A stretch of DNA of 64,000 nt from Planctomycetota bacterium (GCA_003669585.1 QWOQ01000005.1:458502-522501); one strand, 5' to 3'; positions 34,455-58,295 are shown, counted from the stretch's first letter. Notes: generated by a model from the sequence alone, not told the origin. Program-made: numbers and translations.

Positions 34455-34946
34455 ATGACACTTTTTGAAGATTCCCATTTTAAGTGGAGAGAAACCTACT
34501 TCGTCGCCTTTGATCAAAAGCGACGGCCAACGGTTGAACAGATGCGATGCGCCCTCGAAGCTGTCGACGAACATTTTTTAATAGATCATGTCCACGGAGA
34601 CGCCGACGGGAGATTTGAATCACTCACATGCCGTTCACCGTCAGATCATGCGGCATTGGATATTTCATACGAGGATGACTCGGATATCCGTGAACAGAAT
34701 GCGCAAATCGCGATTGAGATTGGATCGACCATTTCCACCACAGAGGATCGGAAAAAAATTGATCTGCTTGGAAAGCTCGACGCTCGTTTCGACGTTCTGC
34801 ACTTCGAGGAGATCGAAGTAGAATCAGACGAAGAGGAATCGACCGATGAAATACTCGACCCAACTGCATTGATTGCGGTACTCGAGCAACTCGTAAAACT
34901 CACCGGGGGAATAGGCGTTGACCCCCAGTCCGGAACGATTGTCTGA
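34455..34946 (+). CDS. Acidic hypothetical protein
   Basis: 163-aa ORF with ordinary composition and an acidic C-terminal half (EEIEVESDEEESTDEILDP). No motif recognised. Confidence 0.55.
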   Translation: MTLFEDSHFKWRETYFVAFDQKRRPTVEQMRCALEAVDEHFLIDHVHGDADGRFESLTCRSPSDHAALDISYEDDSDIREQNAQIAIEIGSTISTTEDRKKIDLLGKLDARFDVLHFEEIEVESDEEESTDEILDPTALIAVLEQLVKLTGGIGVDPQSGTIV

Positions 34947-34978: not shown

Positions 34979-35251
34979 CTACCGCTTTGATTTTTTTTTG
35001 ACCACAGGGGCTTTGACCACAGGGGCTTTGACCACAGGGGCCGCCTTGACCGCAGGAGCCGCCTTGACCGCAGGAGCCGCCTTGACCGCAGGAGCCTTGA
35101 CCGCAGGAGCCTTGACCGCAGGGGCCTTTGCTTGAGTGAGTGGCTTGCCCGTCTTGGGTTTTGCAGCCGCGGCTTTTTTCTTTGCGCGGCCGAATGCCAT
35201 TTCCCAACCTTCTGAATATTCCTTGTTAGTTCCGACTCGAATAAGGGACAC
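34979..35251 (-). CDS. Small basic histone-H1-like repeat protein (Lys/Ala/Pro-rich)
   Basis: 90 codons from the GVG at 35249-35251... more exactly GTG at 35249-35251, or 73 from the ATG at 35198-35200. The product is SLIRVGTNKEYSEGWEMAFGRAKKKAAAAKPKTGKPLTQA, then KAPAV x3, KAAPAV x2, KAAPVV, KAPVV x2, then KKKSKR. The repeat frame is the only one of the three overlapping track ORFs with a non-repeat, protein-like N-terminus. Confidence 0.65.
   Translation of the reverse strand: MSLIRVGTNKEYSEGWEMAFGRAKKKAAAAKPKTGKPLTQAKAPAVKAPAVKAPAVKAAPAVKAAPAVKAAPVVKAPVVKAPVVKKKSKR
35000..35128. repeat. In-frame tandem repeat of eight 15/18-bp units (5-5-5-6-6-6-5-5 codons) inside the H1-like gene
   Basis: The + strand reads GACCACAGGGGCTTT x3, GACCGCAGGAGCCGCCTT x3-like, then GACCGCAGGAGCCTT x2-3. 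A T9 run follows directly (34991-34999, which is AAA AAA AAA = KKK on the coding strand). Confidence 0.9.
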
Positions 35252-35486: not shown

Positions 35487-35900
35487 TCAACCCGGGAGCG
35501 GAAAACAATCTTTGCCGAATTCATAAATTTCCAGAAAAATTCGCCCCACTTCTGCAGGCAGGTCTTGCCGTGATTGTTTCTTGAATTTTTCCTGCACGGT
35601 GCCCTGATTTTCACCCATATTTGAGCCGCTTGGAACTACCATAAGCTCATTGCGTTCCCGCAGAAAAAGGGTGACATCCTGGCGCCAGACTCCCGGGCCA
35701 CAGGAAAGCAGGCTCAAATCGAAGTTATTGAGAACGACTCTCCGAGGCACCCGGTTTGATTCGATAAGAAAGCTCACTTGATGGCGCGGACCTATTCCGC
35801 TCGGGTTTCCAAATCGTCGTCTCCAGCAGGCGTCTGTTGCCTCGCCCTGTGTAATTCGTTCCCACACTGCATTTAAAGATATTCGATGGACGCCACTCAC
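35487..35900 (-). CDS. Hypothetical small protein with a jelly-roll / galactose-binding-like pattern
   Basis: 137-aa ORF. The pattern W..RF..P...(HQVSFLIES)...RRVVLNNFDL...WRQDVTLFLRERNELMVV...GRIFLEIYE resembles the strand order of sugar-binding jelly-roll domains. This is a by-eye call only. Confidence 0.45.
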   Translation of the reverse strand: MSGVHRISLNAVWERITQGEATDACWRRRFGNPSGIGPRHQVSFLIESNRVPRRVVLNNFDLSLLSCGPGVWRQDVTLFLRERNELMVVPSGSNMGENQGTVQEKFKKQSRQDLPAEVGRIFLEIYEFGKDCFPLPG

Positions 35901-36029: not shown

Positions 36030-36359
36030 ATGGGAAGTGCCCTTGAGTTTACTGATGCCAATTTTCAACAAGAAGTTCTCGATTCACCTGTACCAGTACT
36101 TGTCGATTTCTGGGCTCCTTGGTGTGGCCCGTGTCGCATGATTGGCCCGACCATCGAAGAACTTTGTAATGAAAATCAAGGAACGTTTCGAATTGGCAAA
36201 GTCAATGTTGACGAGAACAACGGTGTAGCCATGAAGTACAACGTCTCAAGCATTCCTACGATTATGATTTTCAACAAGGGGCAGATGGTCAATCAGCTCA
36301 TGGGAGTGCAGCAGAAGGCTCGGCTTCAGTCGGCACTCGATGAAACAAAGTCGGCTTAA
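36030..36359 (+). CDS. trxA: Thioredoxin
   Basis: 109-aa ORF with the active site WAPWCGPCR and a typical thioredoxin length and fold pattern (VLVDFWA...IPTIMIF). Confidence 0.95.
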   Translation: MGSALEFTDANFQQEVLDSPVPVLVDFWAPWCGPCRMIGPTIEELCNENQGTFRIGKVNVDENNGVAMKYNVSSIPTIMIFNKGQMVNQLMGVQQKARLQSALDETKSA

Positions 36360-36458: not shown

Positions 36459-39400
36459 TTATTTCAGATTCGTACGGGCCACACGAAAGCCGTTGAAGAG
36501 GTATTTATCCGTCGGCGCGACGAGGTTGTCCCGGTAGGCACATTGCACAAAATGCGGTAGGCCGTTGAATGAGCCGCCACGCAACACACGGCTATCGTTG
36601 TCGTTTATCGTTTCGGCATCCTCTTGGTCCACTTTTACGGCGGGATTATATTTATTCTGACACCACTCATAGACATTGCCGTGCATGTCAAACAATCCCA
36701 AATCATTTGCTTTTAACGTCCCCACAGGATGACTTTGACTATCTGCGTTACTGACAATCCAACCATACTTGCCGAGCACTTCTTCCGAGTCACCAAATGA
36801 AAAATCGGTGGCGGCATCAGCCCGACAGGCATATTCCCATTCCACTTCGGTCGGCAGACGATAGCCGGTTCTATGAATACAATCCGCAGGTATTGTCATG
36901 CCCTCTGTGTAGAGATCATCCTTATTCGGCTCGTAGCACCACTGCTCTTTCGGTAACCCTTCCTGTTCACTGAGCCAGTTGCAATACTCCACTGCGTCGT
37001 ACCAGCTCACACTTATTATCGGGCAGTCGCCGGTGGGAGCATAGGTTTTGTCGACATTGAAACCCTTCTTGAATTGGGAAAACTGATCCACCGTCACTTC
37101 TTTGGAGGCAATCGCGAAATCCCAGTCGATCCGAACCTGCCGCTTACTATCATTATCTCCAATAAGAAACTCACCCGGCTTGGTGATCACAACCATCGTT
37201 TGCCCTTGTCGATTGAGATACCACTGCCGTTTCTCCTGTATTTGTCCGGTCGCTAATTCCTTATCGATAGCCTTGGTTTTCTCCGACATTTGCCACTGAC
37301 TCAGCAGCCATTCGGCGGCTGAGTGTATCCCCGGATCAGGGTCATCCCGGTAAAGTTGCAACAACAGTTGCAACTGATTCAATCGCAGGTCAGCCGACAG
37401 ACTCCGTAAATCATATTCCCCCAAGCTCAACAAAATCGCTCTTTTTATGGAGACGTCTTGCTCCTTCTGCAGCCTAGCGAGGAAGACTTTTGGATCGACC
37501 CCCATCGGCTGACATCGGTCAATCAAAAAGCTTCGCAGCGTCGGGTCGGGGCTATGCTTGAACAGTAACCACACTTTCTCGGACTGCGTCATCAAAAGAA
37601 GAGCCGTTCCAATAAAGGCACTCTCTTTTGTCAATAGGATCCTACTATTTTTCGACATATCTGGCTCAGTCTTCTGGGTCAACTCAGTCAACCGGTTTTC
37701 CAGTCCGACATAAGCCTCGGGATTGTCGACGGCAAGTTTGCCATAGAGCATGGCAACTACACTTCGTTTCAATACGCTGCGTTTCTCATCCATCAGCATG
37801 TCAGCGAGCGGTGGAAACAAGTAGTCTCTCCCACCCAATAAAGCATCCAACCATTGGAGGACCATATATGACTTCTGCTCGACCAGAATCGCCGCCACGT
37901 CCCCACTGACTTTTTCCCAGCGAGGATCCGAGAGAGCAAACACCGACAACGCGCAGGCCGCACGAAGGCGCTGGTCTTCTTTATTTTCAGATTTTTCCAG
38001 CAATTTCCACAATCGCTCTATCAACTCAGCCTTGTGAGGGAACAACGCCTTTCGAATTACGTCCAATTCTTCTGGCTCGGCCTGAAGCAGTCGCTCATAC
38101 AGATACTCCACCTGTGCAGGATCCACCGGCAACAAGGCAAGGCTTGAGTGTAATTGCTTGCGAGGGTCGTTCTCATTCTTCGATTGGGCATAGTCCTCAT
38201 GTAAAAGAGGATCGACCCACCGGCGAAATGGCGACATGTGTGTGATGATCCCCGGCACGTCGGCGATCGTCGATACCTGCAAGCGATTTCGAAGCTGCAA
38301 ACTCTGCAAGCGACCATGGACTTCCCAACTTCCTAAGCCGATTACGATTAAAATCAAGGCAACGGCCATCCCCCGCATTGCATAATACTTTCTCGCTTTT
38401 CGCATCATCCTCCGCTGCGGCAGTGTCCGGCTCTTTTTTTTCGTGTACCACTTGATCTCGAACCACTGCAAGAGCGAGGGGAGTTGCCGATTTTCAGGAC
38501 GAGCATTCCAGACACCCGATCGATCCTCAAGCAACAATTCGGCACGACCACGATGAGTCTCTTTTTGCTTGCGAGTGAGCCAGTCTCGCAACGACGGCAC
38601 CAGAAAATCGTGCGTGAGTTGATAGTATTTTTTATCTGAAGCTCGCTCGCTTTTTTGATTCTGTTCGTCCACACCATCTGGGTCTGTCGGAGTAATGAGA
38701 CGAATTTCACTATCCAAAATATGAATCAGATCATCAAAATCTTTTGGTTGATCTGCATATCCAGACGCATGGAGCAACTCATCATGAGTCTTCATGTATC
38801 CTTTGATGAGTGTGCCAGACTCTGGAAGGAGCGCACGCAAAACGCTTCGAACTGCTTTCTGGTGATAGCGATGTTCTGGTGGAGCGGTTGGAGCACTGAA
38901 GGTTTCTTCCAGAAACGTAATATCAACACCCTCAGTTCCGCCAACTTCTTTCAGTACTGCAGGCGTCCAGTCTCGACTCTTCATTATCTCTGCAAAAAGA
39001 GCCAGTCGCACCGACATCACTTTTCCTCCTTGCGACAAACCCCGAATCGCCTGTTGAAGAAACTCTTTTTGTTCTTTCGTTTTTTCTCCAGCGTTTTCAG
39101 AAATTGTTCCGAATGCTCGTCCAAATGCAGTCAGCACTTTTGTGGCGTGATGCGTGTCAAAGAGCTCCACTGCCGATGAATTCTGCCCCTCTACAATTTT
39201 TTCTTCCAAGTCTTTCATGAATCTGGTTGCCGCCATCCAGAAATCATCCCGCACCATCACGATACATTGCACATTCCTGCCGTTGCAGTGTCGTAGAACC
39301 TGCACGAGTTCTGTGTTGTGCTCTTCTTTCCTGGCGTGCAGCCACTGCTCGAATTGATCTAAAACGATTAAAAGTTTTCTTCCCGATGGAACGTATTGAC

Positions 39401-39740
39401 CGCGGCGAAGTGCAGACAGCGACTCCTTGAGCGAGAGCGTCTCAGGCAAGGCTGCGCATCGCTTTCGCAGACCACCGAGAAGGCGACGCTCTGTTTGCTC
39501 TGCGGTCGCTTCGATATAGACAATCAGCACATCCTCAGACAAGCGAGGCAATAATCCAGCCTTGACGAGCGATGACTTGCCGCATCCTGAAGGTCCATAC
39601 ATTAAGCCCACTGAAAATGGGTTATTCAGATATGTTTTTTCAATGCGTGACTTCCAGAATCGAACGCTTTCTGGAAGGCCACCACGATCACGAGGACCAG
39701 GTAGCAGTTCTAAAAAAAAAGTCGGCGTCGTGAGCATCAA
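36459..39740 (-). CDS. STAND-like P-loop NTPase / single TM / HEAT-like repeats / FGE-sulfatase (SUMF1-like) domain protein. This is probably the frameshifted 3' part of the upstream kinase gene.
   Basis: 1093-aa ORF. Walker A is GPSGCGKSSLVKAGLLPRL (aa 49-67) and Walker B is KLLIVLDQFEQW (aa 122-133). A TM helix GMAVALILIVIGLGSW lies at aa ~457-472. A helical repeat region follows (DPRKQLHSSLALLP...DQRLRAACALSVFA...). The C-terminal FGE-type domain carries YRLPTEVEWEYACRA, GNVYEWCQN, RVLRGGSF and GFRVAR (aa ~845-1090, nt 36471-37208). The only start candidates (TTG 39740, ATG 39737) lie inside the kinase ORF. Confidence 0.8.
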   Translation of the reverse strand: MMLTTPTFFLELLPGPRDRGGLPESVRFWKSRIEKTYLNNPFSVGLMYGPSGCGKSSLVKAGLLPRLSEDVLIVYIEATAEQTERRLLGGLRKRCAALPETLSLKESLSALRRGQYVPSGRKLLIVLDQFEQWLHARKEEHNTELVQVLRHCNGRNVQCIVMVRDDFWMAATRFMKDLEEKIVEGQNSSAVELFDTHHATKVLTAFGRAFGTISENAGEKTKEQKEFLQQAIRGLSQGGKVMSVRLALFAEIMKSRDWTPAVLKEVGGTEGVDITFLEETFSAPTAPPEHRYHQKAVRSVLRALLPESGTLIKGYMKTHDELLHASGYADQPKDFDDLIHILDSEIRLITPTDPDGVDEQNQKSERASDKKYYQLTHDFLVPSLRDWLTRKQKETHRGRAELLLEDRSGVWNARPENRQLPSLLQWFEIKWYTKKKSRTLPQRRMMRKARKYYAMRGMAVALILIVIGLGSWEVHGRLQSLQLRNRLQVSTIADVPGIITHMSPFRRWVDPLLHEDYAQSKNENDPRKQLHSSLALLPVDPAQVEYLYERLLQAEPEELDVIRKALFPHKAELIERLWKLLEKSENKEDQRLRAACALSVFALSDPRWEKVSGDVAAILVEQKSYMVLQWLDALLGGRDYLFPPLADMLMDEKRSVLKRSVVAMLYGKLAVDNPEAYVGLENRLTELTQKTEPDMSKNSRILLTKESAFIGTALLLMTQSEKVWLLFKHSPDPTLRSFLIDRCQPMGVDPKVFLARLQKEQDVSIKRAILLSLGEYDLRSLSADLRLNQLQLLLQLYRDDPDPGIHSAAEWLLSQWQMSEKTKAIDKELATGQIQEKRQWYLNRQGQTMVVITKPGEFLIGDNDSKRQVRIDWDFAIASKEVTVDQFSQFKKGFNVDKTYAPTGDCPIISVSWYDAVEYCNWLSEQEGLPKEQWCYEPNKDDLYTEGMTIPADCIHRTGYRLPTEVEWEYACRADAATDFSFGDSEEVLGKYGWIVSNADSQSHPVGTLKANDLGLFDMHGNVYEWCQNKYNPAVKVDQEDAETINDNDSRVLRGGSFNGLPHFVQCAYRDNLVAPTDKYLFNGFRVARTNLK

Positions 39741-40800
39741 ATGAACGCAAGCCTTTTGGAACCACCTTGATCGGCTGACTGTCGGAATACGACGACGATG
39801 TTGGAGTGAGATCGCTTGAGATGATCGGTTTTGCTTGCGATTGATTTTGAAGATGCCCTGAGGTGGAGGGATTCGTTGAAAGAGACAGTTCTTCCAAGAT
39901 TAGTCGCAGATCGTCAGCCAAGTCGTGCGCCGTTGAATAACGCTCAGAAGTTCGTTTGGAAATCGCTTTGAGACAGATGCGATCCAGTTCTTTTGGAATG
40001 AGTTCATTGAGTTGGCGAGGTGGCCTCGGTTCGAACGTGCAAATCAATTCAAAAAGTTCAGGTATTGATTTTGATTCAAATGGTTTGCGCCCGGTAAGCA
40101 ATTCATAGAGAACAACTCCCAGACTAAAAATGTCTGATCGAGCATCCACTCGATGTCCTTCGCCACGAGCCTGTTCTGGCGACATATAGGAAGGAGTTCC
40201 GACAAAACACGACTCCTTCGAAACGTTCTGCTCTCGAAGTGCCAAGCCAAAATCGGCCACGAAGGGTTGATTGTTTTTGTCAAGCAAAATATTTGCAGGC
40301 TTAATGTCTCGATGCACCAAACCTTGTTTGTGAGCATAATGAAGTGCCTCAGCCACAGTCGTCACCAATTCAACCGCGTCTCGAACAGTCAATGATGATT
40401 GATTGCTTTTTATAGCAAGGTTGATTCCGTCAATATATTTTGAAACGATGAAGCATGGATATCGTTCCGTCGAACCAACATCGTGTACGGGAACAATATG
40501 AGGATGATCAAGATTGGCAACCATGCGAGCTTCTGCCATATACGCTTTTGCTTGATCCGCGTGAGCGATCAATTCAAAATGCGGAACTTTGATTGCTACA
40601 GGACGCTGCAGCTGATCGTCATAGGCAAGATAGACAAGCCCGTATATTCCCTTATCCAAAACCTTGTCGATTCGATAGCGACCAATCTGCTTGGGATGTT
40701 CGAGGAATTCGCCGGAAGACAAGTCAAGAAGCATCTGGAGCGACGAGGCTCCTTCAGAATTATTTTTATTCTGAGAGGTTGTTGCGTCTGGATCGTTCAT
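39688..40800 (-). CDS. Hanks-type Ser/Thr protein kinase domain protein, truncated by the frameshift at 39712-39720
   Basis: 370 aa from the ATG at 40800; the track ORF extends to a TTG at 40890. Kinase motifs: VAIKVPH (VAIK), HRDIKPANILL (HRD), DFGLA (DFG), SYMSPEQ (APE-like) and DIFSLGVVLYELLTG. The ORF ends ...KGLRSFDAHDADFFFRTATWSS*. Confidence 0.88.
   Translation of the reverse strand: MNDPDATTSQNKNNSEGASSLQMLLDLSSGEFLEHPKQIGRYRIDKVLDKGIYGLVYLAYDDQLQRPVAIKVPHFELIAHADQAKAYMAEARMVANLDHPHIVPVHDVGSTERYPCFIVSKYIDGINLAIKSNQSSLTVRDAVELVTTVAEALHYAHKQGLVHRDIKPANILLDKNNQPFVADFGLALREQNVSKESCFVGTPSYMSPEQARGEGHRVDARSDIFSLGVVLYELLTGRKPFESKSIPELFELICTFEPRPPRQLNELIPKELDRICLKAISKRTSERYSTAHDLADDLRLILEELSLSTNPSTSGHLQNQSQAKPIISSDLTPTSSSYSDSQPIKVVPKGLRSFDAHDADFFFRTATWSS
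39712..39720 (-). other. T9 (A9 on the + strand) homopolymer at the frameshift junction between the kinase ORF and the NTPase ORF
   Basis: The kinase frame reads GAC TTT TTT TTT AGA (D F F F R), and a stop follows 7 codons later. The NTPase frame reads ACT TTT TTT TTA GAA CTG (T F F L E L). Deleting one T fuses ...DAHDADFF to LELLPGPRDRGGLPESVRFWK. Confidence 0.85.
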
Positions 40801-40953
40801 TGATCCGCTCCTATGAATGACGCAAAATTTTAAGTTGGGGTTTTCCAGCCCACAAGAAGGAGCCCTCTGCGGTTCCGGAGACACAGCCAAAGCGAAACCA
40901 CGAGCGGTCTTTCAGCCACAGCCTCTTTCGTTTTGGCTGCTTTTCAGTCTCTT

Positions 40954-41352
40954 TTAAAATTTCTTCTGACCAGATTTGCTCAAAACGCATGGTTTACCAT
41001 CCATCGAGAGTGTAAAAGGGATGCAATCCTGCGGTATTGATAGCGCCCGTACGCGTAGGTCAGCCATACCCAGCCATACGATCCGCTCTACCTGACGGGG
41101 CTCATCGTTCGGAACATGCTGTGTTCGTCGCTGCGTGTTCCGTGAGTGCCCCAACACATTGCATGTTCGGCGTTCGCTCAAGTGATCACGGCCGAGAGCA
41201 GTTCTTGTCTGCTCGACCGCGTATTGCCCCTTCGCCGGGCTCAGAACTTTCCCGAAGCGGCCTCCTGAAACGCCAGAGTCGAGTTCGACGTCGGCCAACC
41301 ACCGCTTGAGTCGGTTGTTCTTCTCGATATCCTTCAGCCGCTTGGCCGGGCT
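40954..41352 (-). mobile_element. Decayed IS3-family transposase remnant (OrfA C-terminus / OrfB N-terminus only; no DDE domain)
   Basis: The minus-strand frame reads AKRLKDIEKNNRLKRWLADVELD...LSPAKGQYAVEQTRTALGRDHLSERRTCNVLGHSRNTQRRTQHVPNDEPRQVERIV. This matches the IS3/IS407-group pattern (A)KRLKxLExENxxLKxLxADxxLD...LxPAxRRxxV...VSERRACRxxGxxRSxxRY...DDxxLRxRI. Upstream to ~41470, out-of-frame traces (DDATFR, EYGGL) and stops are visible. The catalytic domain is absent. Confidence 0.65.
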
Positions 41353-41475
41353 CTATCCTGAGGCCGCCGTACTCTATTCACAAGCACGTCTGCTCCGTCG
41401 TGATTGGTCTCCCCGAAATGTCGCATCGTCACGACCAACGCATCCAACGGCGCGGTGATAAAACATCATCCGCAA

Positions 41476-43188
41476 TCAGAAAATATCGCTTTGGCAATGA
41501 CCTACAAGGGCAACGGAGTCTATTTCTTTATCCTCTTCTTCATGGATTGAAATCTCATCGAGCTTTTGATGATACTCCGCGTTTGTCTTTGCTCTCTTTG
41601 GAACCTCGGCAGGGCGCACGTATTCGGGCACAATACCTTCTACAAATCCTGCCAGATCGAGATGAAATCCGGGATGCCGTAGTTTTTGCACAGCTTTGGC
41701 TTCAATCTGTCGAACCCGTTCACGCGTCACGCTGAAGATTGTGCCGACTTCCTCAAGCGTATAGCTATACCCGTCGGCCAGCCCGAACCGCAGCCGAAGG
41801 ATTTCCCGTTCACGATAACTCAGACCTTCGAGAACTCGGCCGATCGAACACTTTAAAGAGTCTTCGTGGATTGCCTTCAGTGGATCAATCTCGTGCTGAT
41901 CTCGAACGAGTTCTCCGATTCCTGATTCGTCGTTGTCACCCATTGGCTGATCGAGGGATATCGGTTGACGAGACATGCGCCACACGCACTCTGCTTCGGC
42001 CAGAGTGAGCCCAGCCAATTCTGCCATTTCCTCAACAATCGGTTCGCGTCCATGAGTTTGCACAAAATTTCTGGCGATCACTCGCATTTTTGACATCGTG
42101 TCGATCATGTGCACAGGTATGCGAATGGTCCGACTCTGATCAGCGATTGCACGCGTAATTGCCTGACGAATCCACCAAGTGGCATAGGTTGAAAACTTAA
42201 AGCCTCTGGCATGTTCAAACTTGTCCACGGCACGCATTAATCCGGAGTTTCCCTCCTGAATCAGATCGAGAAAACTCATGCCACGGTTTCGGTATCGTTT
42301 TGCGATCGATACAACCAGCCGCAGGTTCCCCGCGGCAAGTTCTCGTTTTGCGGCGTCGTATCGGTTTTGCATTCCGTCGAGTTGTTCGAGTCGTCTTCGA
42401 AGTATCGGCAAGCTCTCGCCAGCTGTTGCAAGAATTTTTCTCCGTTCACTGGAACGCTGTTTTTTAGTGCATCCAGTACAAGCAGTGTTCCGATCCGCAT
42501 CCGGTTCAAAGCGGTCGATCCGAAGAGCCATTTCACGCAAATCTTTGAGCATGGGATAGAGTCGCTGAATGCGAAGGTTCATCTCTTCCACCAGTCGCAC
42601 CGCTTTATTTCTCTGACGCACGAGCTTGTGCCATATTTCACGTCGCTGTTTCATCGGCATTTTTCTTGAGAGCGCAACCCGAAACAGATTGATATTTTCC
42701 TGTTCAATTCTTCGCAGGGTTTCGAGATTTGGTCCAAGCCTCCGCAGCAGACGTTTTTTTTCAGCGGTGTTCGTGACCGAAACCTCAATCGTGCGATCGA
42801 GTCGCACCGTTCCGGCTTGAACACGTCCCAAGAGCGCAATCGCCCCCGAGAGCACCCATTGGTTGGCTAAGAGCGTTCTGCGAAAGAGTCGGCGCCAGTG
42901 TTCAATCTTCTTCGACGAAGAGACTTCCGTTTGACGAGTCAGAAGCGGGATTCCTCCCATCTGAAGCAAATACAGTCTTACTGGATCGTCAATCGGGCCA
43001 TGATTGCTGTTTTTGTCCTTCTTCCGAAGAACACTGGCTGGCGAAACTTTTTTTGAAAAAAAGGATGATTTCGCTCCCTTGCCATTGGCCCCTGGTGCGT
43101 GCCCATTGCTTTGAACCGCTCCGAGTCTGATTGGCTCTATTTTATGAGGAGTTTTTTTCAATTGTAAGGACGCTGCGACTGACTGCAT
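41476..43188 (-). CDS. rpoD: RNA polymerase sigma-70 factor (RpoD/SigA-like, primary-type)
   Basis: 570-aa ORF. Region 2 is [56 protein letters not shown]. Region 3 and region 4.2 are present ([33 protein letters not shown]). About 60 aa follow the usual end of region 4.2. Confidence 0.9.
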
Positions 43189-43358: not shown

Positions 43359-43629
43359 TACGATCTCGTTCTCTCGATCGCGTCGCCCAAAAGCGACAAA
43401 TTGAGGAAACGCCTGCGTTGCCGAAGGGGAACAGCGTCGATAAGAGGCACCGGTCTCGACAATATTCATTTCAAAACTGCTCTCGCAGTCTGCCGGGAGT
43501 GTCTGGGTATACTTCGTGTTTGAGTTGAATTCTCCCTTTGAATAAGCACGTGTCTGATTTTGATCTTTGCTCATTCATGTAGATCGGGACGTTCCGATCT
43601 ACGACTACCTCCTTTCGAGTTCATTCATC

Positions 43630-45222
43630 ATGGGAATGATCCCAATTGCGTTCTTGGTTATTTTTATTCTCGGAGCGATGGTCGCTCTGGGAATCGGACA
43701 CAAGGGCTGGAGTTACGGAACGATTGCCGCAGCATGGCTGCTGCTTCTGGCGAGCATCGGATTTATCGTGCTTGTCGCAATGGTTTCCAATCGTGAACGA
43801 CAGTGGCGTAAAATCGCCCGCGATTATGAACTTGCAATCGCAAAGGAACGCGATGCAATGGCTCCCAACTCTTCTGGAGTTCTCGAAACATTCGGAGAGG
43901 AAGGTACGACGGTATCAAAATCTCTTTCGGAACTTGATCTGCTGCGTACTCAGTGGCAGCGAATTGCTTCGAAAGTCAATTCCTGGAGAGGCCGGCACTG
44001 GGAGAAGGCAACCTTTGAACCGCCACGTGAATTGAATGATGGAACGATCACCATCACAGATTCGGAGAAACCTGCCATTGCTCCAGGTGCCATTCTTTAT
44101 CTTTTCGGCATTCAAGAAACGCAGGCACAGGGCGGAACGTTTCTGGGAGAATTTATCGTTCAAAAAGCGAATGAAAATATATTCGACATTTCTCCTACAT
44201 CCATTCCGAATGACAACGAGAAAAAGTCATGGGACGAGCCATACGAGTCAATCACCGTTTACGAAAATCTTCCATTCGATCGATGGCTCACGTACTACCG
44301 AACCAAAAATCTCGTGTCCCAAAAGGTTCCTCCTGAGGAAGGCACTCTTTCTCCAGACCGACTAAAAGAACTTGAGCAGCATGAGGAGTCGCTCGATCCA
44401 GTGCCCGCCGAGACACCTGGAGAAGAAGAGCCAGAGAATCCCTTAGCGACAGTGTCGCTCGATCCGCCGTTAGGAGTCCGATGGGCAACGGTCACGTTTC
44501 TTGAGCCATGCGCATACACCTGGCCCGACGGAAATCCGGCAAGCTTTGCTCAAGATGAAACTTTTAGCGCCTTTCCGGCTGAACATATAAAACACCTTCG
44601 CGACAGTGGTGCCAGCTTTAAGCACCAGTGGAATTATCCACCTGGGGTTCGCTGGGCGAAGGTTTTGTTCACCGCACCGAAGGTGATTGAACGAACGGAT
44701 GCCGCTGCCAAAGAGAACATGGAAGGAGGAGGAGAACCCTTTCAGTTTGAATCTGGAGCGGAGGCGTTTTTCGATATCGAGACGGCCGAAAAACTGGCTC
44801 AAGAGAATGTCGTTGAAATCAAAGAACGGATTTTTCGTCGACCGCTTGTCGATCCGTTCACAGAGCTTCGCGGAAATGAGAAATTTGGCGTTGAGGGAAT
44901 TCTGCTTTTGCGAAAAGGAATTGAAAATCTGATTGGTGGCACCGAGGCAACACGCGATGCTCTCAAGCAGGCAAACGCCTCGGCTCAAGAGGATATCCTC
45001 ACCCGGAAGGAAGAACGAGAGAAGCTCATGTCTGATAAATCTGGCTGGTCGACTGATGCTCAGACCGCCACAAAAATCGTTGAAAAGTTTCAGTCAAAAG
45101 TCATGGTTGCCGACAAAAATCTCGCCTCCTCGCTGAATGCAATTCAGGATCTGGATTCCGAATTTCGGACGATCTCCCAAACGCTTGAAATCGAAGTCGA
45201 CCGTCGATCGCCTTCGCCATAA
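43630..45222 (+). CDS. Hypothetical membrane-anchored protein with a coiled-coil C-terminus
   Basis: 530 aa from the ATG at 43630; the track ORF starts at a TTG at 43567. There are two N-terminal TM helices (MIPIAFLVIFILGAMVALGIG, AAAWLLLLASIGFIVLVAMV). An internal duplicated motif is present, PPLGVRWATVTFLEP (nt 44461-44505) and PPGVRWAKVLFTAP (44635-44679). The tail is helical. Confidence 0.6.
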   Translation: MGMIPIAFLVIFILGAMVALGIGHKGWSYGTIAAAWLLLLASIGFIVLVAMVSNRERQWRKIARDYELAIAKERDAMAPNSSGVLETFGEEGTTVSKSLSELDLLRTQWQRIASKVNSWRGRHWEKATFEPPRELNDGTITITDSEKPAIAPGAILYLFGIQETQAQGGTFLGEFIVQKANENIFDISPTSIPNDNEKKSWDEPYESITVYENLPFDRWLTYYRTKNLVSQKVPPEEGTLSPDRLKELEQHEESLDPVPAETPGEEEPENPLATVSLDPPLGVRWATVTFLEPCAYTWPDGNPASFAQDETFSAFPAEHIKHLRDSGASFKHQWNYPPGVRWAKVLFTAPKVIERTDAAAKENMEGGGEPFQFESGAEAFFDIETAEKLAQENVVEIKERIFRRPLVDPFTELRGNEKFGVEGILLLRKGIENLIGGTEATRDALKQANASAQEDILTRKEEREKLMSDKSGWSTDAQTATKIVEKFQSKVMVADKNLASSLNAIQDLDSEFRTISQTLEIEVDRRSPSP

Positions 45223-56385: not shown

Positions 56386-56624
56386 GACATCACGATTCTT
56401 TCAACAATATCGGGTTTCATGGGATTTCTATTTTTGACTCTCTCAAATGCTTTCCCGTGATGCGATCAAGTCTTTCGACTGCATAATGACAGGCGAATCG
56501 TCCAGAGAGTATGATTTTTCGAATTCATCCTCTGATGGTATTCTCTCATACGCAGCTCATTTTTTTGTCACCTTCATGTGACACATTTTTTCCTTTCTGC
56601 TTTTCACATTTTCTATTGCCCCGC

Positions 56625-58295
56625 ATGAGCCACTCGAAAGAACAGACCCTGAGTGATTTCCTCTCCGTGGTTCACTCCAGTGGACTCGTCAGCAAGGAGT
56701 CACTTGCAGGTGCGATTGGGCCGTGGACAGATCGGCATGGACCAGTTCCCGAGGAATTGCTCGAGCATCTCATCAAAGAAGAACTTCTGACTTCGTGGCA
56801 GATCAACAAACTGCGAAAAGGGCAGCACAAAGGATTTATTCTTGACAAATATAAACTCCTTCGACTTCTGGGCTCTGGCGGCATGAGCAGCGTTTATCTG
56901 GCAGAACATGCGACACTCAAGCACAAAGTGGCAATCAAAGTTTTGCCGCCTAAACATGTTGCGAAAACCTCTTATAAAAAACGCTTTGAACGAGAGGCTC
57001 GGGCTGCTGCCCAACTGCAACACCCGCATATCGTTCGAGCCACTGACTCAGGGGCAGTCGGTGACATTCATTACATCGTGATGGAATATATTCAAGGAGG
57101 CGATCTCCACGAGAAGGTAAAAGCTGAAGGCCCGATCGATATCCGAAATGCCGCAGATTACATTCGTCAAGCAGCGCTTGGGCTCCACTATGCGCACGAG
57201 GAAGGATTTGTGCACCGCGACATCAAGCCGGCGAACCTGATCCTCGACACTCACGGAGTTGTCAAAATACTCGATCTTGGATTGGCACGACCAAGCGATG
57301 AAGACGATGAGAGTGCAGGACTCACTGGTGAATTCAACGAAAAAATTCTTGGTACGGCCGACTATCTGGCACCTGAACAGGCCACCGACAGCCATAAGGC
57401 TGATCGCCGCTCCGACATTTACAGTCTGGGATGTGCTTTTTATTACCTGCTGATTGGAAAAGGGCCGTTTGCCAAAGGAACTCTTGGCGAGCGAATTCGA
57501 TCGCAGATCAACGATCCACCACCCAACATTCTCGACCTTCGGCCCGACACCCCTGTAACTCTGGTGGTTCTCTACTTGCAAATGCTCGAAAAGAATCCTG
57601 ATGCGCGCCCACAAACAGCCAATGAGGTTGCCGAAACCATCAGAATCTGGTTAGAAGCCACAAAGGTTGACTACACACCGCGTCCTTTTTCTCCTCCCCC
57701 GCGCCGAACACCAGCACAACAAAGTCCTGTCGAACATTTACCTTCTGATTTATCCGCCAGCCCCGGGCCAGTGAGTCAGTTGTCCACTCAAAGCAGTCTG
57801 CCCTTCGATCCTTTTCCAATCACTGGCGACTCCACGAACGCTCCGAATGAACCCGCTCTTTTATCTCTTTCATTTTCTCCACCGACAGTCGACGGAATAC
57901 AGTCGATCAACACTCTCTCGTCGGCAGACCCGAAAAGATCATCCGGAAAAGTCGCAATTCCAAAAAGTCACTCCAAAGAAGGCAACCGCCGGGTTCTACG
58001 AAGTATCATGTTTGCCGGTCAACCACTGAGCCTGTGGCTGATTATTCTGGGAATTATCTTGGTCCTTGGTGTGATGGTGGGAACCCTCATTCTTCGGCCT
58101 GATAAGACCACGCCAAAGAAAACAGGCCCCGGCAAAGCGCCCACTTCTTCTTCGAAATCGAATGAAAAGGCTCCTGCGTCAACGAAGAAGCCTTCCATCA
58201 AAAAAGAAAAACCGCAATCCATGGAAGAATCTTCTGGTCCAAGTGTTTTGGATAATCTTGAAAATTTAAAGCCTGCGAATGAAGCTGCACAATAA
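56625..58295 (+). CDS. Hanks-type Ser/Thr protein kinase with a C-terminal TM helix and a Lys/Pro/Ser-rich tail
   Basis: 556 aa from the ATG at 56625. Motifs: GSGGMSSVY (G-loop), VAIKVL, HRDIKPANLIL, DLGLA, DYLAPEQ. The TM helix is LSLWLIILGIILVLGVMVGTLIL. Confidence 0.88.
   Translation: MSHSKEQTLSDFLSVVHSSGLVSKESLAGAIGPWTDRHGPVPEELLEHLIKEELLTSWQINKLRKGQHKGFILDKYKLLRLLGSGGMSSVYLAEHATLKHKVAIKVLPPKHVAKTSYKKRFEREARAAAQLQHPHIVRATDSGAVGDIHYIVMEYIQGGDLHEKVKAEGPIDIRNAADYIRQAALGLHYAHEEGFVHRDIKPANLILDTHGVVKILDLGLARPSDEDDESAGLTGEFNEKILGTADYLAPEQATDSHKADRRSDIYSLGCAFYYLLIGKGPFAKGTLGERIRSQINDPPPNILDLRPDTPVTLVVLYLQMLEKNPDARPQTANEVAETIRIWLEATKVDYTPRPFSPPPRRTPAQQSPVEHLPSDLSASPGPVSQLSTQSSLPFDPFPITGDSTNAPNEPALLSLSFSPPTVDGIQSINTLSSADPKRSSGKVAIPKSHSKEGNRRVLRSIMFAGQPLSLWLIILGIILVLGVMVGTLILRPDKTTPKKTGPGKAPTSSSKSNEKAPASTKKPSIKKEKPQSMEESSGPSVLDNLENLKPANEAAQ

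Follow-up and report, generated by a model that had tools for sequence, protein, structure and literature searches.

A Frameshifted Member of a Large Planctomycetota Family of Putative Transmembrane Kinase–nSTAND1 Receptors with a Lectin/FGE-Like Domain

Gene Organization and Domain Architecture

A 64,000-nucleotide stretch of the Planctomycetota bacterium assembly GCA_003669585.1 (QWOQ01000005.1:458502-522501), hereafter the window, was analysed around a minus-strand gene for a putative transmembrane receptor kinase; all positions are counted from the first letter of the window. Two overlapping minus-strand open reading frames (ORFs), 39688-40890 and 36459-39740, are found here, in exact agreement with a preliminary description of this DNA, and their overlap lies on a homopolymer of nine T (T9). 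Removal of one T (T9 to T8) fuses the two frames into an uninterrupted protein of 1,446 aa, the length reconstructed in that description. The repaired gene starts with an ATG at 40800, which has the Shine–Dalgarno (SD) sequence AGGAG ahead of it, and stops at 36459-36461, while the TTG at 40890 is only the opening of the ORF. In the window allele, the upstream ORF stops 11 codons past the T run with the tail DADFFFRTATWSS, and its end overlaps the downstream ORF by about 50 nt (Table 1).

In the repaired protein, Pkinase, nSTAND1 and FGE-sulfatase (formylglycine-generating enzyme, FGE) were all matched above the Pfam gathering scores, and HEAT_2 was matched weakly by sequence (E = 0.0085), with the HEAT-like part recovered in the predicted structure. 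The previously proposed order of kinase, NTPase, transmembrane (TM) helix, HEAT-like repeats and FGE-like domain therefore holds, and all the motifs quoted for it are present, those of the FGE-like domain at 36474-36860. The protein thus comprises a cytoplasmic kinase and nSTAND1 switch, one TM helix, a solenoid and a non-catalytic lectin/FGE fold. The best reading of the locus is that it encodes one member of a very large, Planctomycetota-specific family of single-gene transmembrane receptor kinases.

Table 1. Coordinates of the receptor gene, its parts and the adjacent features in the window.
Feature	Position	Strand	Basis
Whole gene, 1,446-aa protein after removal of one T	36459..40800	(-)	ORF reading; homologs with 55-62% identity at 97-100% coverage
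Upstream ORF of the window allele, soluble 370-aa kinase ending in DADFFFRTATWSS before the stop	39688..40800	(-)	ORF calls; identical product on 22 contigs
Downstream ORF, 1,092 aa, with NTPase, TM helix, solenoid and FGE-like domain	36459..39737	(-)	Gene callers give 1,092 aa
T9 homopolymer (A9 on the + strand), cause of the frameshift, within the near-invariant DFFLELLPGPRD	39712..39720	(-)	
Hanks-type Ser/Thr kinase domain, VAIK/HRDIKPAN/DFG/SPE intact	39925..40677	(-)	Pfam Pkinase 1.1e-45; motifs at least 90% conserved in 99 homologs
nSTAND1 NTPase module, followed by helical and winged-helix parts	38556..39605	(-)	Pfam nSTAND1 8.6e-18; predicted structure
Single transmembrane helix MRGMAVALILIVIGLGSWEV, with a K/R-rich juxtamembrane stretch ahead	38319..38378	(-)	Hydropathy and conservation; part of a long helix in the model
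HEAT/ARM-like alpha-solenoid of about 19 helices, inferred to be extracytoplasmic	37254..38267	(-)	Model pLDDT 93.7; Foldseek
FGE-sulfatase-fold (C-type-lectin-like, TvpA-like) domain lacking the catalytic Cys pair, presumed ligand-binding sensor	36474..37193	(-)	Pfam 1.5e-41; Foldseek
Decayed IS3-family transposase fragment in several reading frames, between the sigma-70 gene and the gene start	40905..41395	(-)	NF033516
trxA	36030-36359		Confirmed neighbour
sigma-70 gene	41476-43188		Confirmed neighbour

Kinase and nSTAND1 NTPase

The N-terminal domain is a Hanks-type kinase, with a Pkinase score of 156.6 bits against a cutoff of 31.7 and with VAIKV, HRDIKPAN, DFG and SPEQ all present. Its best NCBIfam match is a PknB-type model, yet the score falls below the cutoff of that model. 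A second Hanks-type Ser/Thr kinase, which has neither the NTPase nor the FGE domain, is also encoded in the window (56511-58295, plus strand, 594 aa, Pkinase 2.8e-51), and its kinase domain shares 35% identity with that of the receptor gene.

The following module was matched by the nSTAND1 profile PF20703 with 65.5 bits against a cutoff of 27.1 over model positions 37-358 of 379, and this search bears out the nSTAND assignment that the preliminary description had made from motifs. The P-loop NTPase motifs Walker A (GPSGCGKSS, 39570-39596) and Walker B (LLIVLDQFEQ, 39345-39374) are present, as well as a sensor-like MVRDDF (39240-39257). The frameshift removes the N-terminal conserved motif of the nSTAND1 region, and the repaired protein regains it. 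The structure predicted for the NTPase region (predicted local distance difference test, pLDDT, 83.1) was matched in Foldseek to Orc1/Cdc6 (2.6e-9), to archaeal PF01637-type ATPases (2qen, 2fna) and to the plant resistosomes Sr35, NRC4 and G10, with TM-scores of just 0.3-0.5, which support the fold class but not the fine clade. The model supports, for this region, a predicted arrangement of nucleotide-binding, helical and winged-helix domains, as in STAND/ORC-type switches. In addition, VAIK, HRD, DFG, SPE, Walker A, Walker B and MVRDDF are each at least 90% conserved among the 99 full-length homologs aligned, and such strong conservation points to active enzymes in the family.

Transmembrane Helix and Topology

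The hydrophobic helix MRGMAVALILIVIGLGSWEV (residues 808-827, Kyte–Doolittle 1.85) is the lone outstanding segment of the protein in hydropathy, and it has 11 K/R in the preceding 30 residues and 3 in the following 30, a positive-inside bias. When the repaired protein is taken together with its 99 full-length homologs, a hydropathy peak of at least 1.6 is found at the helix position in 96 of the 100 sequences, and exactly one such peak in 93, in agreement with the single helix and the N-in/C-out orientation proposed earlier. The kinase and the NTPase need ATP, and both should therefore be cytoplasmic; with both inside and a single pass through the membrane, the C-terminal 620 residues would therefore lie outside. 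Moreover, paralogs carry PA14, ConA-like Laminin_G_3, BTRD1, TPR or DsbH-like thioredoxin modules after the TM helix, and this supports the same topology because such modules are typical of extracytoplasmic, often carbohydrate-binding proteins. From hydropathy, charge bias, the ATP requirement and the paralog modules, we infer, with good support, an N-in/C-out topology.

Solenoid and FGE-Like Domain

The C-terminal part (residues 800-1446) was modelled with AlphaFold using 60 homologs in the input (pLDDT 93.7, pTM 0.87), and the model contains, in order, a 42-residue helix formed by the TM segment and a stalk, about 19 alpha-solenoid helices and an alpha/beta domain. In a Foldseek search of the PDB, the solenoid was matched to CAP-G, the PP2A A subunit, importins and beta-catenin, and these ranked below TvpA, ToxD and CalU17, the matches of the terminal domain. 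The FGE-sulfatase fold of this last domain is confirmed by PF03781, by the model and by Foldseek, in which Treponema denticola TvpA (2y3c) was the top PDB match (E = 5e-12, TMt 0.70), followed by ToxD and CalU17; no true FGE was among the top 50 PDB matches. A sequence search of the PDB gave a similar order, with TvpA 2y3c first (9e-20), then PvdO, ToxD and PorK/GldK, and real FGEs only at about 1e-10.

The preliminary description had called the FGE domain complete, and this applies to the fold but not to the catalytic Cys pair. The C-terminal segment of human FGE was verified against PDB chains and then pairwise-aligned to the window protein; it reads GGSYMCHRSYCYRYR and holds a Cys pair, whereas the window protein reads GGSFNGLPHFVQCAYRD and holds a single Cys. 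The catalytic, Cu-binding pair of human FGE, Cys336/Cys341 in the established residue numbering, is represented in the window protein only by the Cys opposite Cys341, with none at the Cys336 position. In the family, the column of the window Cys is S73/T8/A8/C7, the consensus is RGGSF-x7-RSAxR, and there is no other conserved Cys in that segment among the 100 aligned members.

It could be supposed that the C-terminal domain is a genuine periplasmic FGE or an EgtB/PvdO-like oxidase, which, for example, matures sulfatases under control of the kinase and NTPase. The Pfam FGE-sulfatase match is strong, NCBI names the homologs 'SUMF1/EgtB/PvdO family nonheme iron enzyme', and planctomycetes are rich in sulfatases. 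However, neither catalytic Cys is conserved in the family, true FGEs rank under TvpA, PvdO, ToxD and PorK by sequence, and the NCBIfam equivalogs EgtB, PvdO, SenA, OvoA, GldK and GldJ reach 46-76 bits at best against cutoffs of 350-544. The cysteines and the scores below profile cutoffs led us to reject a catalytic FGE/EgtB/PvdO role, which we regard as highly improbable. Because the catalytic cysteines are absent and the equivalog scores are far under their cutoffs, the NCBI enzyme name is very probably wrong for this family, and the present analysis corrects a widespread annotation.

Over roughly the last 35 residues, positions that vary among paralogs are interspersed with a conserved scaffold, and N, D, Y, S, F and G are frequent at these variable positions. 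This region coincides with the one that TvpA and other targets of diversity-generating retroelements (DGRs) use for ligand binding, and we take it to be a putative specificity-determining pocket. The composition of the variable positions prompted the hypothesis of a DGR, which was rejected: no second copy of the 3' 440 nt, as a template repeat would be, was found within the window, and the domain shows no strain-level variation.

Distribution and Variants of the Family

A word-indexed homolog search gave about 8,000 hits. The top 120 were inspected, and nearly all of them are 1,400-1,600 aa long, share 53-63% identity across 97-100% of the query and carry the same Pfam set; they come from Planctomycetia, Gemmataceae and Thermoguttaceae. 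Among GTDB species representatives, 399 encoding stretches were found, of which 79 loci were retained; these fall in Gemmataceae, Planctomycetaceae, Pirellulales and Isosphaeraceae, often with 2-3 loci in one genome. The closest of the GTDB-representative loci shows 62% identity, and the window lineage is one of uncultured freshwater Planctomycetota known from metagenome-assembled genomes. The family-specific juxtamembrane–TM–solenoid segment by itself matched 4,843 representatives at 50% identity, and for 1,096 of these the E-value was 1e-30 or lower; short matches among these may be metagenomic fragments, and no truncated architectures were deduced from them. Mean identity to the window protein is 61% for the kinase, 67% for nSTAND1 and about 51% for the outer domains. 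The architecture is therefore neither unusual nor rare, and the family is among the most abundant large-protein families of Planctomycetota.

Variants were seen on both sides of the membrane. Two homologs of 1,571-1,610 aa (P0039 and P0016) carry a TIR_2 domain between the kinase and nSTAND1, in a kinase-TIR-nSTAND1-...-FGE order. The extracytoplasmic half is modular, with Laminin_G_3, PA14, BTRD1, TPR and a C-terminal DsbH-like thioredoxin placed around the HEAT/FGE-like domains (P0026, P0066, P0113, P0136, P0139 and P0166).

Frameshift of the Window Allele

Read on the minus strand, the slip site of the window is GAC TTTTTTTTT AGA, and the intact T8 allele reads GAC TTT TTT TTA. The site is inside the motif DFFLELLPGPRD, which is near-invariant across the 99 aligned homologs. 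The exact 370-aa truncated kinase was called on 22 contigs from many European Nucleotide Archive (ENA) and Logan assemblies. Moreover, all 10 contigs that were fetched (MEGAHIT-style k141 ENA contigs, scaffolds and Logan) carry T9 as the window does, each being 99.9-100% identical to the window over 5-12 kb. Sequencing error was therefore rejected as the cause of the frameshift, and T9 is real because it is shared by near-clonal contigs of many assemblies. T8 with an intact gene (1,450 or 1,485 aa) was found in two contigs from other samples, which are 98.9% and 97.8% identical to the window, and the 90%-identity cluster around the window protein holds both split and intact forms. On these contigs, T9 marks one near-clonal lineage, and the intact allele belongs to sister strains.

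A possibly switchable frameshift had been suggested, which the data do not support. Phase variation was rejected: no T8 is seen in the clonal background but only at 1-2% divergence from the T9 lineage, the tract is not conserved, and the exact repaired protein has no match in a collection of 15 billion sequences. In 70 homologs, the T run at the slip motif is six or shorter and TTC-rich codons are used; the T8 tract is a species-specific accident of codon choice and not a conserved device. The frameshift looks like a lineage-fixed mutation rather than a phase-variation switch.

Substitutions between strains were polarised using a second strain and counted downstream of the slip, where non-synonymous to synonymous changes were 11:3 on the window branch and 9:10 on the intact branch; the difference hints at relaxed constraint on the window branch but is not significant (p = 0.087). 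No further disabling mutation was seen downstream of the slip in the repaired reading frame, and the downstream ATG at 39737 has no convincing SD sequence ahead of it. In many bacteria, transcription tends to slip on runs of nine T, and some genes exploit this (PMC1088944). Slippage on the U9 run could thus yield a minority of full-length protein in the window lineage. Judged from the sequence, the window allele is most likely lost or strongly attenuated, as an early pseudogene.

The split allele might alternatively be a working two-protein system, with halves that cooperate in trans, or a programmed frameshift that sets the ratio of short kinase to receptor. For such a system speak the downstream ORF, which has its own ATG and is called as a gene, the success of the T9 lineage across many samples, the slippage-prone run and the lack of more disabling mutations downstream. 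However, a programmed device is expected to be conserved, whereas only this species has the tract, and its nearest strains have an in-frame T8; the slip wrecks an almost invariant motif, all 99 aligned full-length homologs are single polypeptides, and the weak start of the downstream ORF and the hint of relaxed constraint also argue against it. We consider a working split system improbable. The window locus is a frameshifted, probably attenuated or dying member of an abundant, conserved, stand-alone Planctomycetota family, not a singular system, and it matters less as a single gene because this copy is probably inactive. The T8 (intact) and T9 (broken) alleles occur in lake strains that are close relatives, and the pair could be used as a natural experiment.

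Relation to Known Systems

Kaur, Iyer, Burroughs and Aravind (2021, eLife) coined nSTAND1 and predicted effector-STAND-FGS proteins by comparative genomics, in which the N-terminal effectors include S/T/Y kinase, TIR, caspase and others, and FGS (the FGE-sulfatase domain) was proposed as a sensor of invaders (PMC8195603). The link to this comparative-genomic work drawn in the preliminary description is correct. Later studies described FGE-like/C-type-lectin domains as STAND sensors that are often DGR-diversified, and stated that they are experimentally uncharacterised (PMC10907252; PMC12803255). In the literature searched, no experimentally characterised member with the kinase-nSTAND1-TM-FGE combination was found, as the preliminary description had supposed, and no description of the membrane-spanning planctomycete form was found either; the published models are intracellular. 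Against that literature, what was not found described is the TM helix together with an extracytoplasmic solenoid, which would place the lectin-like sensor outside.

The best reading of the locus is a kinase-nSTAND1-FGS protein of the kind that Kaur et al. (2021) predicted, but in a form that spans the membrane. Both groups share the NTPase clade, the effector-STAND-FGS/C-type-lectin order, kinase or TIR effectors and several paralogs per genome. The proteins of Kaur et al. are predicted to sense inside the cell, are often DGR-linked and are centred on cyanobacteria and proteobacteria, whereas the family described here is planctomycete-specific and strongly conserved, has a TM helix and a solenoid of about 340 aa with FGS outside, and shows no DGR or template repeat in the window and no partner genes with effector-associated domains (EAD).

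Other known proteins resemble parts of this architecture. TvpA (PDB 2y3c) is the closest solved structure for the C-terminal domain and has a non-catalytic, ligand-binding C-type-lectin/FGE fold, with a C-terminal binding region equivalent to the part where the family's variable residues lie, but it is a small lipoprotein diversified by a retroelement, whereas the window domain sits at the end of a 1,446-aa receptor and does not hypervary between strains. PorK/GldK and GldJ, which are lipoproteins of the type IX secretion system, and PvdO likewise show that the FGE-sulfatase fold can serve in the periplasm in non-catalytic or non-FGE ways; their roles are structural or biosynthetic, they have no signalling domains, and their NCBIfam models score the window protein far below cutoff. 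PknB/Stk1 (PASTA) and PknD are similar in that a single pass separates an internal kinase from an external ligand-binding domain, but their kinase joins the TM helix directly, whereas a STAND switch of about 440 aa stands between the two in the window family. PknK of Mycobacterium tuberculosis has a MalT-type ATPase and C-terminal repeats. Like the window family, it combines an N-terminal Hanks kinase and a STAND-type ATPase in one polypeptide, and this STAND-family Ser/Thr kinase is the only kinase-STAND fusion with experimental study in the literature searched (PMC9045387). It differs in being soluble or membrane-associated, without a TM helix, an extracytoplasmic sensor or an FGE fold.

Proposed Mechanism and Possible Immune Function

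A family member is probably, though far from certainly, an outside-in receptor kinase gated by its STAND module. The outer solenoid-plus-lectin module would bind an extracytoplasmic ligand, most plausibly a glycan or an envelope or surface polymer; this type of ligand is favoured because paralogs add PA14, ConA-like and BTRD1 modules in the same part of the protein. The binding signal would pass along the TM/stalk helix and free the STAND module into an NTP-bound, oligomerising state. Oligomerisation would then gather the N-terminal kinase domains, leading to trans-autophosphorylation and phosphorylation of substrates. Paralogs that differ at positions equivalent to the TvpA binding site would read different ligands. 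In the window allele, a replication slip from T8 to T9 in the conserved FFL codons has split the gene, leaving a 370-aa kinase on its own and an NTPase-sensor ORF of 1,092 aa whose ribosome-binding site is poor. STAND/NLR switches (NLR, nucleotide-binding leucine-rich repeat receptor) are understood as cytoplasmic sensors, and a conserved family of several thousand members with a STAND module placed between an outside lectin-fold sensor and a kinase would, if true, extend this paradigm. The family would also offer a handle on barely explored signalling and immunity in Planctomycetota, where the large kinase repertoires are unexplained.

Several points weigh against a STAND-gated signalling receptor of which the window holds a decaying copy. 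The evidence is computational throughout, and the ligand, the NTPase activity, the oligomerisation and the substrates of the kinase are all predictions. The TM call is founded on hydropathy, conservation and domain logic, and the uncharged core of the helix is short, at about 16 residues; HEAT-type solenoids are, besides, uncommon outside the cytoplasm. As to the window allele, consensus assemblies cannot reveal minority T8 subpopulations, the signal of relaxed constraint past the slip falls short of significance, and the split allele is abundant and widespread, so that its halves might work as separate polypeptides. Finally, the nSTAND1 clade and the kinase-TIR-nSTAND1 variants lean to immune-type over ordinary signalling roles.

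This last point leads to a rival function, that of an immune or conflict receptor of the type described by Kaur, Aravind and colleagues. The lectin-like FGS would then sense a phage particle or tail, a predator or another non-self surface at the envelope, the STAND module would oligomerise, and the kinase (or TIR in paralogs) would trigger growth arrest or death, with the paralogs forming an NLR-like repertoire. That is the very setting in which the clade was defined, where S/T/Y kinase and TIR can replace each other as effectors and the sensing falls to FGS (PMC8195603), and FGE-like sensors were found among defence-associated STANDs (PMC12803255). The variants with TIR between kinase and NTPase, the several paralogs per genome and the overlap of the N/D/Y/S/F/G-rich variable positions with the TvpA/DGR variable region are all consistent with this, and costly immune genes are commonly lost by frameshift. 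In addition, between strains the gene has a ratio of non-synonymous to synonymous polymorphism (pN/pS) of 0.52, whereas the pooled neighbours have 0.17 (34:19 versus 15:27; Fisher p = 0.007).

However, the non-synonymous changes between strains (window versus L080) cluster in residues 1-800, that is, in the kinase, linker and NTPase, while residues 900-1446 are almost invariant; only 1-2 codons differ beyond residue 900 and none beyond residue 1390. An invariant sensor is the opposite of the pattern of a fast-evolving one. The 55-62% full-length identity retained across Planctomycetota families also indicates strong purifying selection, and the published model senses inside the cell, whereas here the sensor is outside. 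In PADLOC-DB, the 1,093-aa NTPase-sensor ORF matched no family, and the kinase was matched only by kinase models of a generic kind (PD-T4-6, mad6). Housekeeping genes surround the locus, no partner gene recurs across loci, and the window holds neither a template repeat nor a DGR. The hallmarks of a conflict-type system (a DGR in the window, defence neighbours, a PADLOC match for the NTPase-sensor part) are missing at this locus, and we hold an immune function to be a serious but rather unlikely alternative to the signalling receptor.

More speculatively, the family could be a prokaryotic 'receptor-NLR', in which an outside lectin-like pattern-recognition domain, a STAND oligomerisation switch across the membrane and a kinase or TIR output are combined in one polypeptide, and the planctomycete paralogs would be surface-surveillance immune or allorecognition receptors that sense phage, predators and neighbours before entry. 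This is offered as a conjecture and is doubtful. If true, such proteins would merge functions that plants divide between receptor-like kinases and NLRs, and lake populations would carry the frameshifted allele as a segregating, natural loss-of-function variant.

Genomic Neighbourhood and Other Features of the Window

The position of the gene between trxA and rpoD, beside an insertion sequence (IS) remnant, was confirmed, but no meaning could be attached to these neighbours: a trxA homolog adjoins a family member in 1 of the 79 loci, a sigma factor homolog likewise in 1 of 79, and conserved synteny with either was rejected. proC is also confirmed near the gene, and the neighbours, which include IMPDH and a glnD-like gene, have housekeeping functions. 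De novo clustering of the neighbouring ORFs of the 79 loci gave no recurrent partner gene; the clusters that did recur consist of shadow ORFs within the gene itself, and no real neighbour family was present in more than 6 of 79 loci. By this survey, the gene is a stand-alone module.

The IS remnant belongs to the IS3 family. Its frame-stitched translation weakly matches NF033516 (E = 3.4e-5, model positions 59-190 of 369), and Pfam gave no match on single-frame ORFs of the region. The sister strain L091 (locus 1-170) lacks a stretch of about 590 bp (~40803-41396) and has about 71 unrelated bp instead. Lying some 100 bp ahead of the start codon, the insertion may have taken the place of the native promoter.

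The window also contains a minus-strand ORF of 90 aa (34979-35251) with K/A/P-rich 'KA(A)PAV' tandem repeats at about 35000-35200, which is of histone H1-like low complexity and has no Pfam match. When the window was compared by BLAST with the near-identical strains L081 and L082, the alignments broke and overlapped at these repeats, which suggests a possible copy-number polymorphism between clones. A second run of nine T (34991-34999) is found in the same ORF region. Three conserved-looking ORFs have no Pfam match, namely 35487-35900 (minus strand, 137 aa), 34455-34946 (plus strand, 163 aa) and 43567-45222 (plus strand, 551 aa), and the 163-aa and 551-aa flanking ORFs were also called in the sister-strain contigs.

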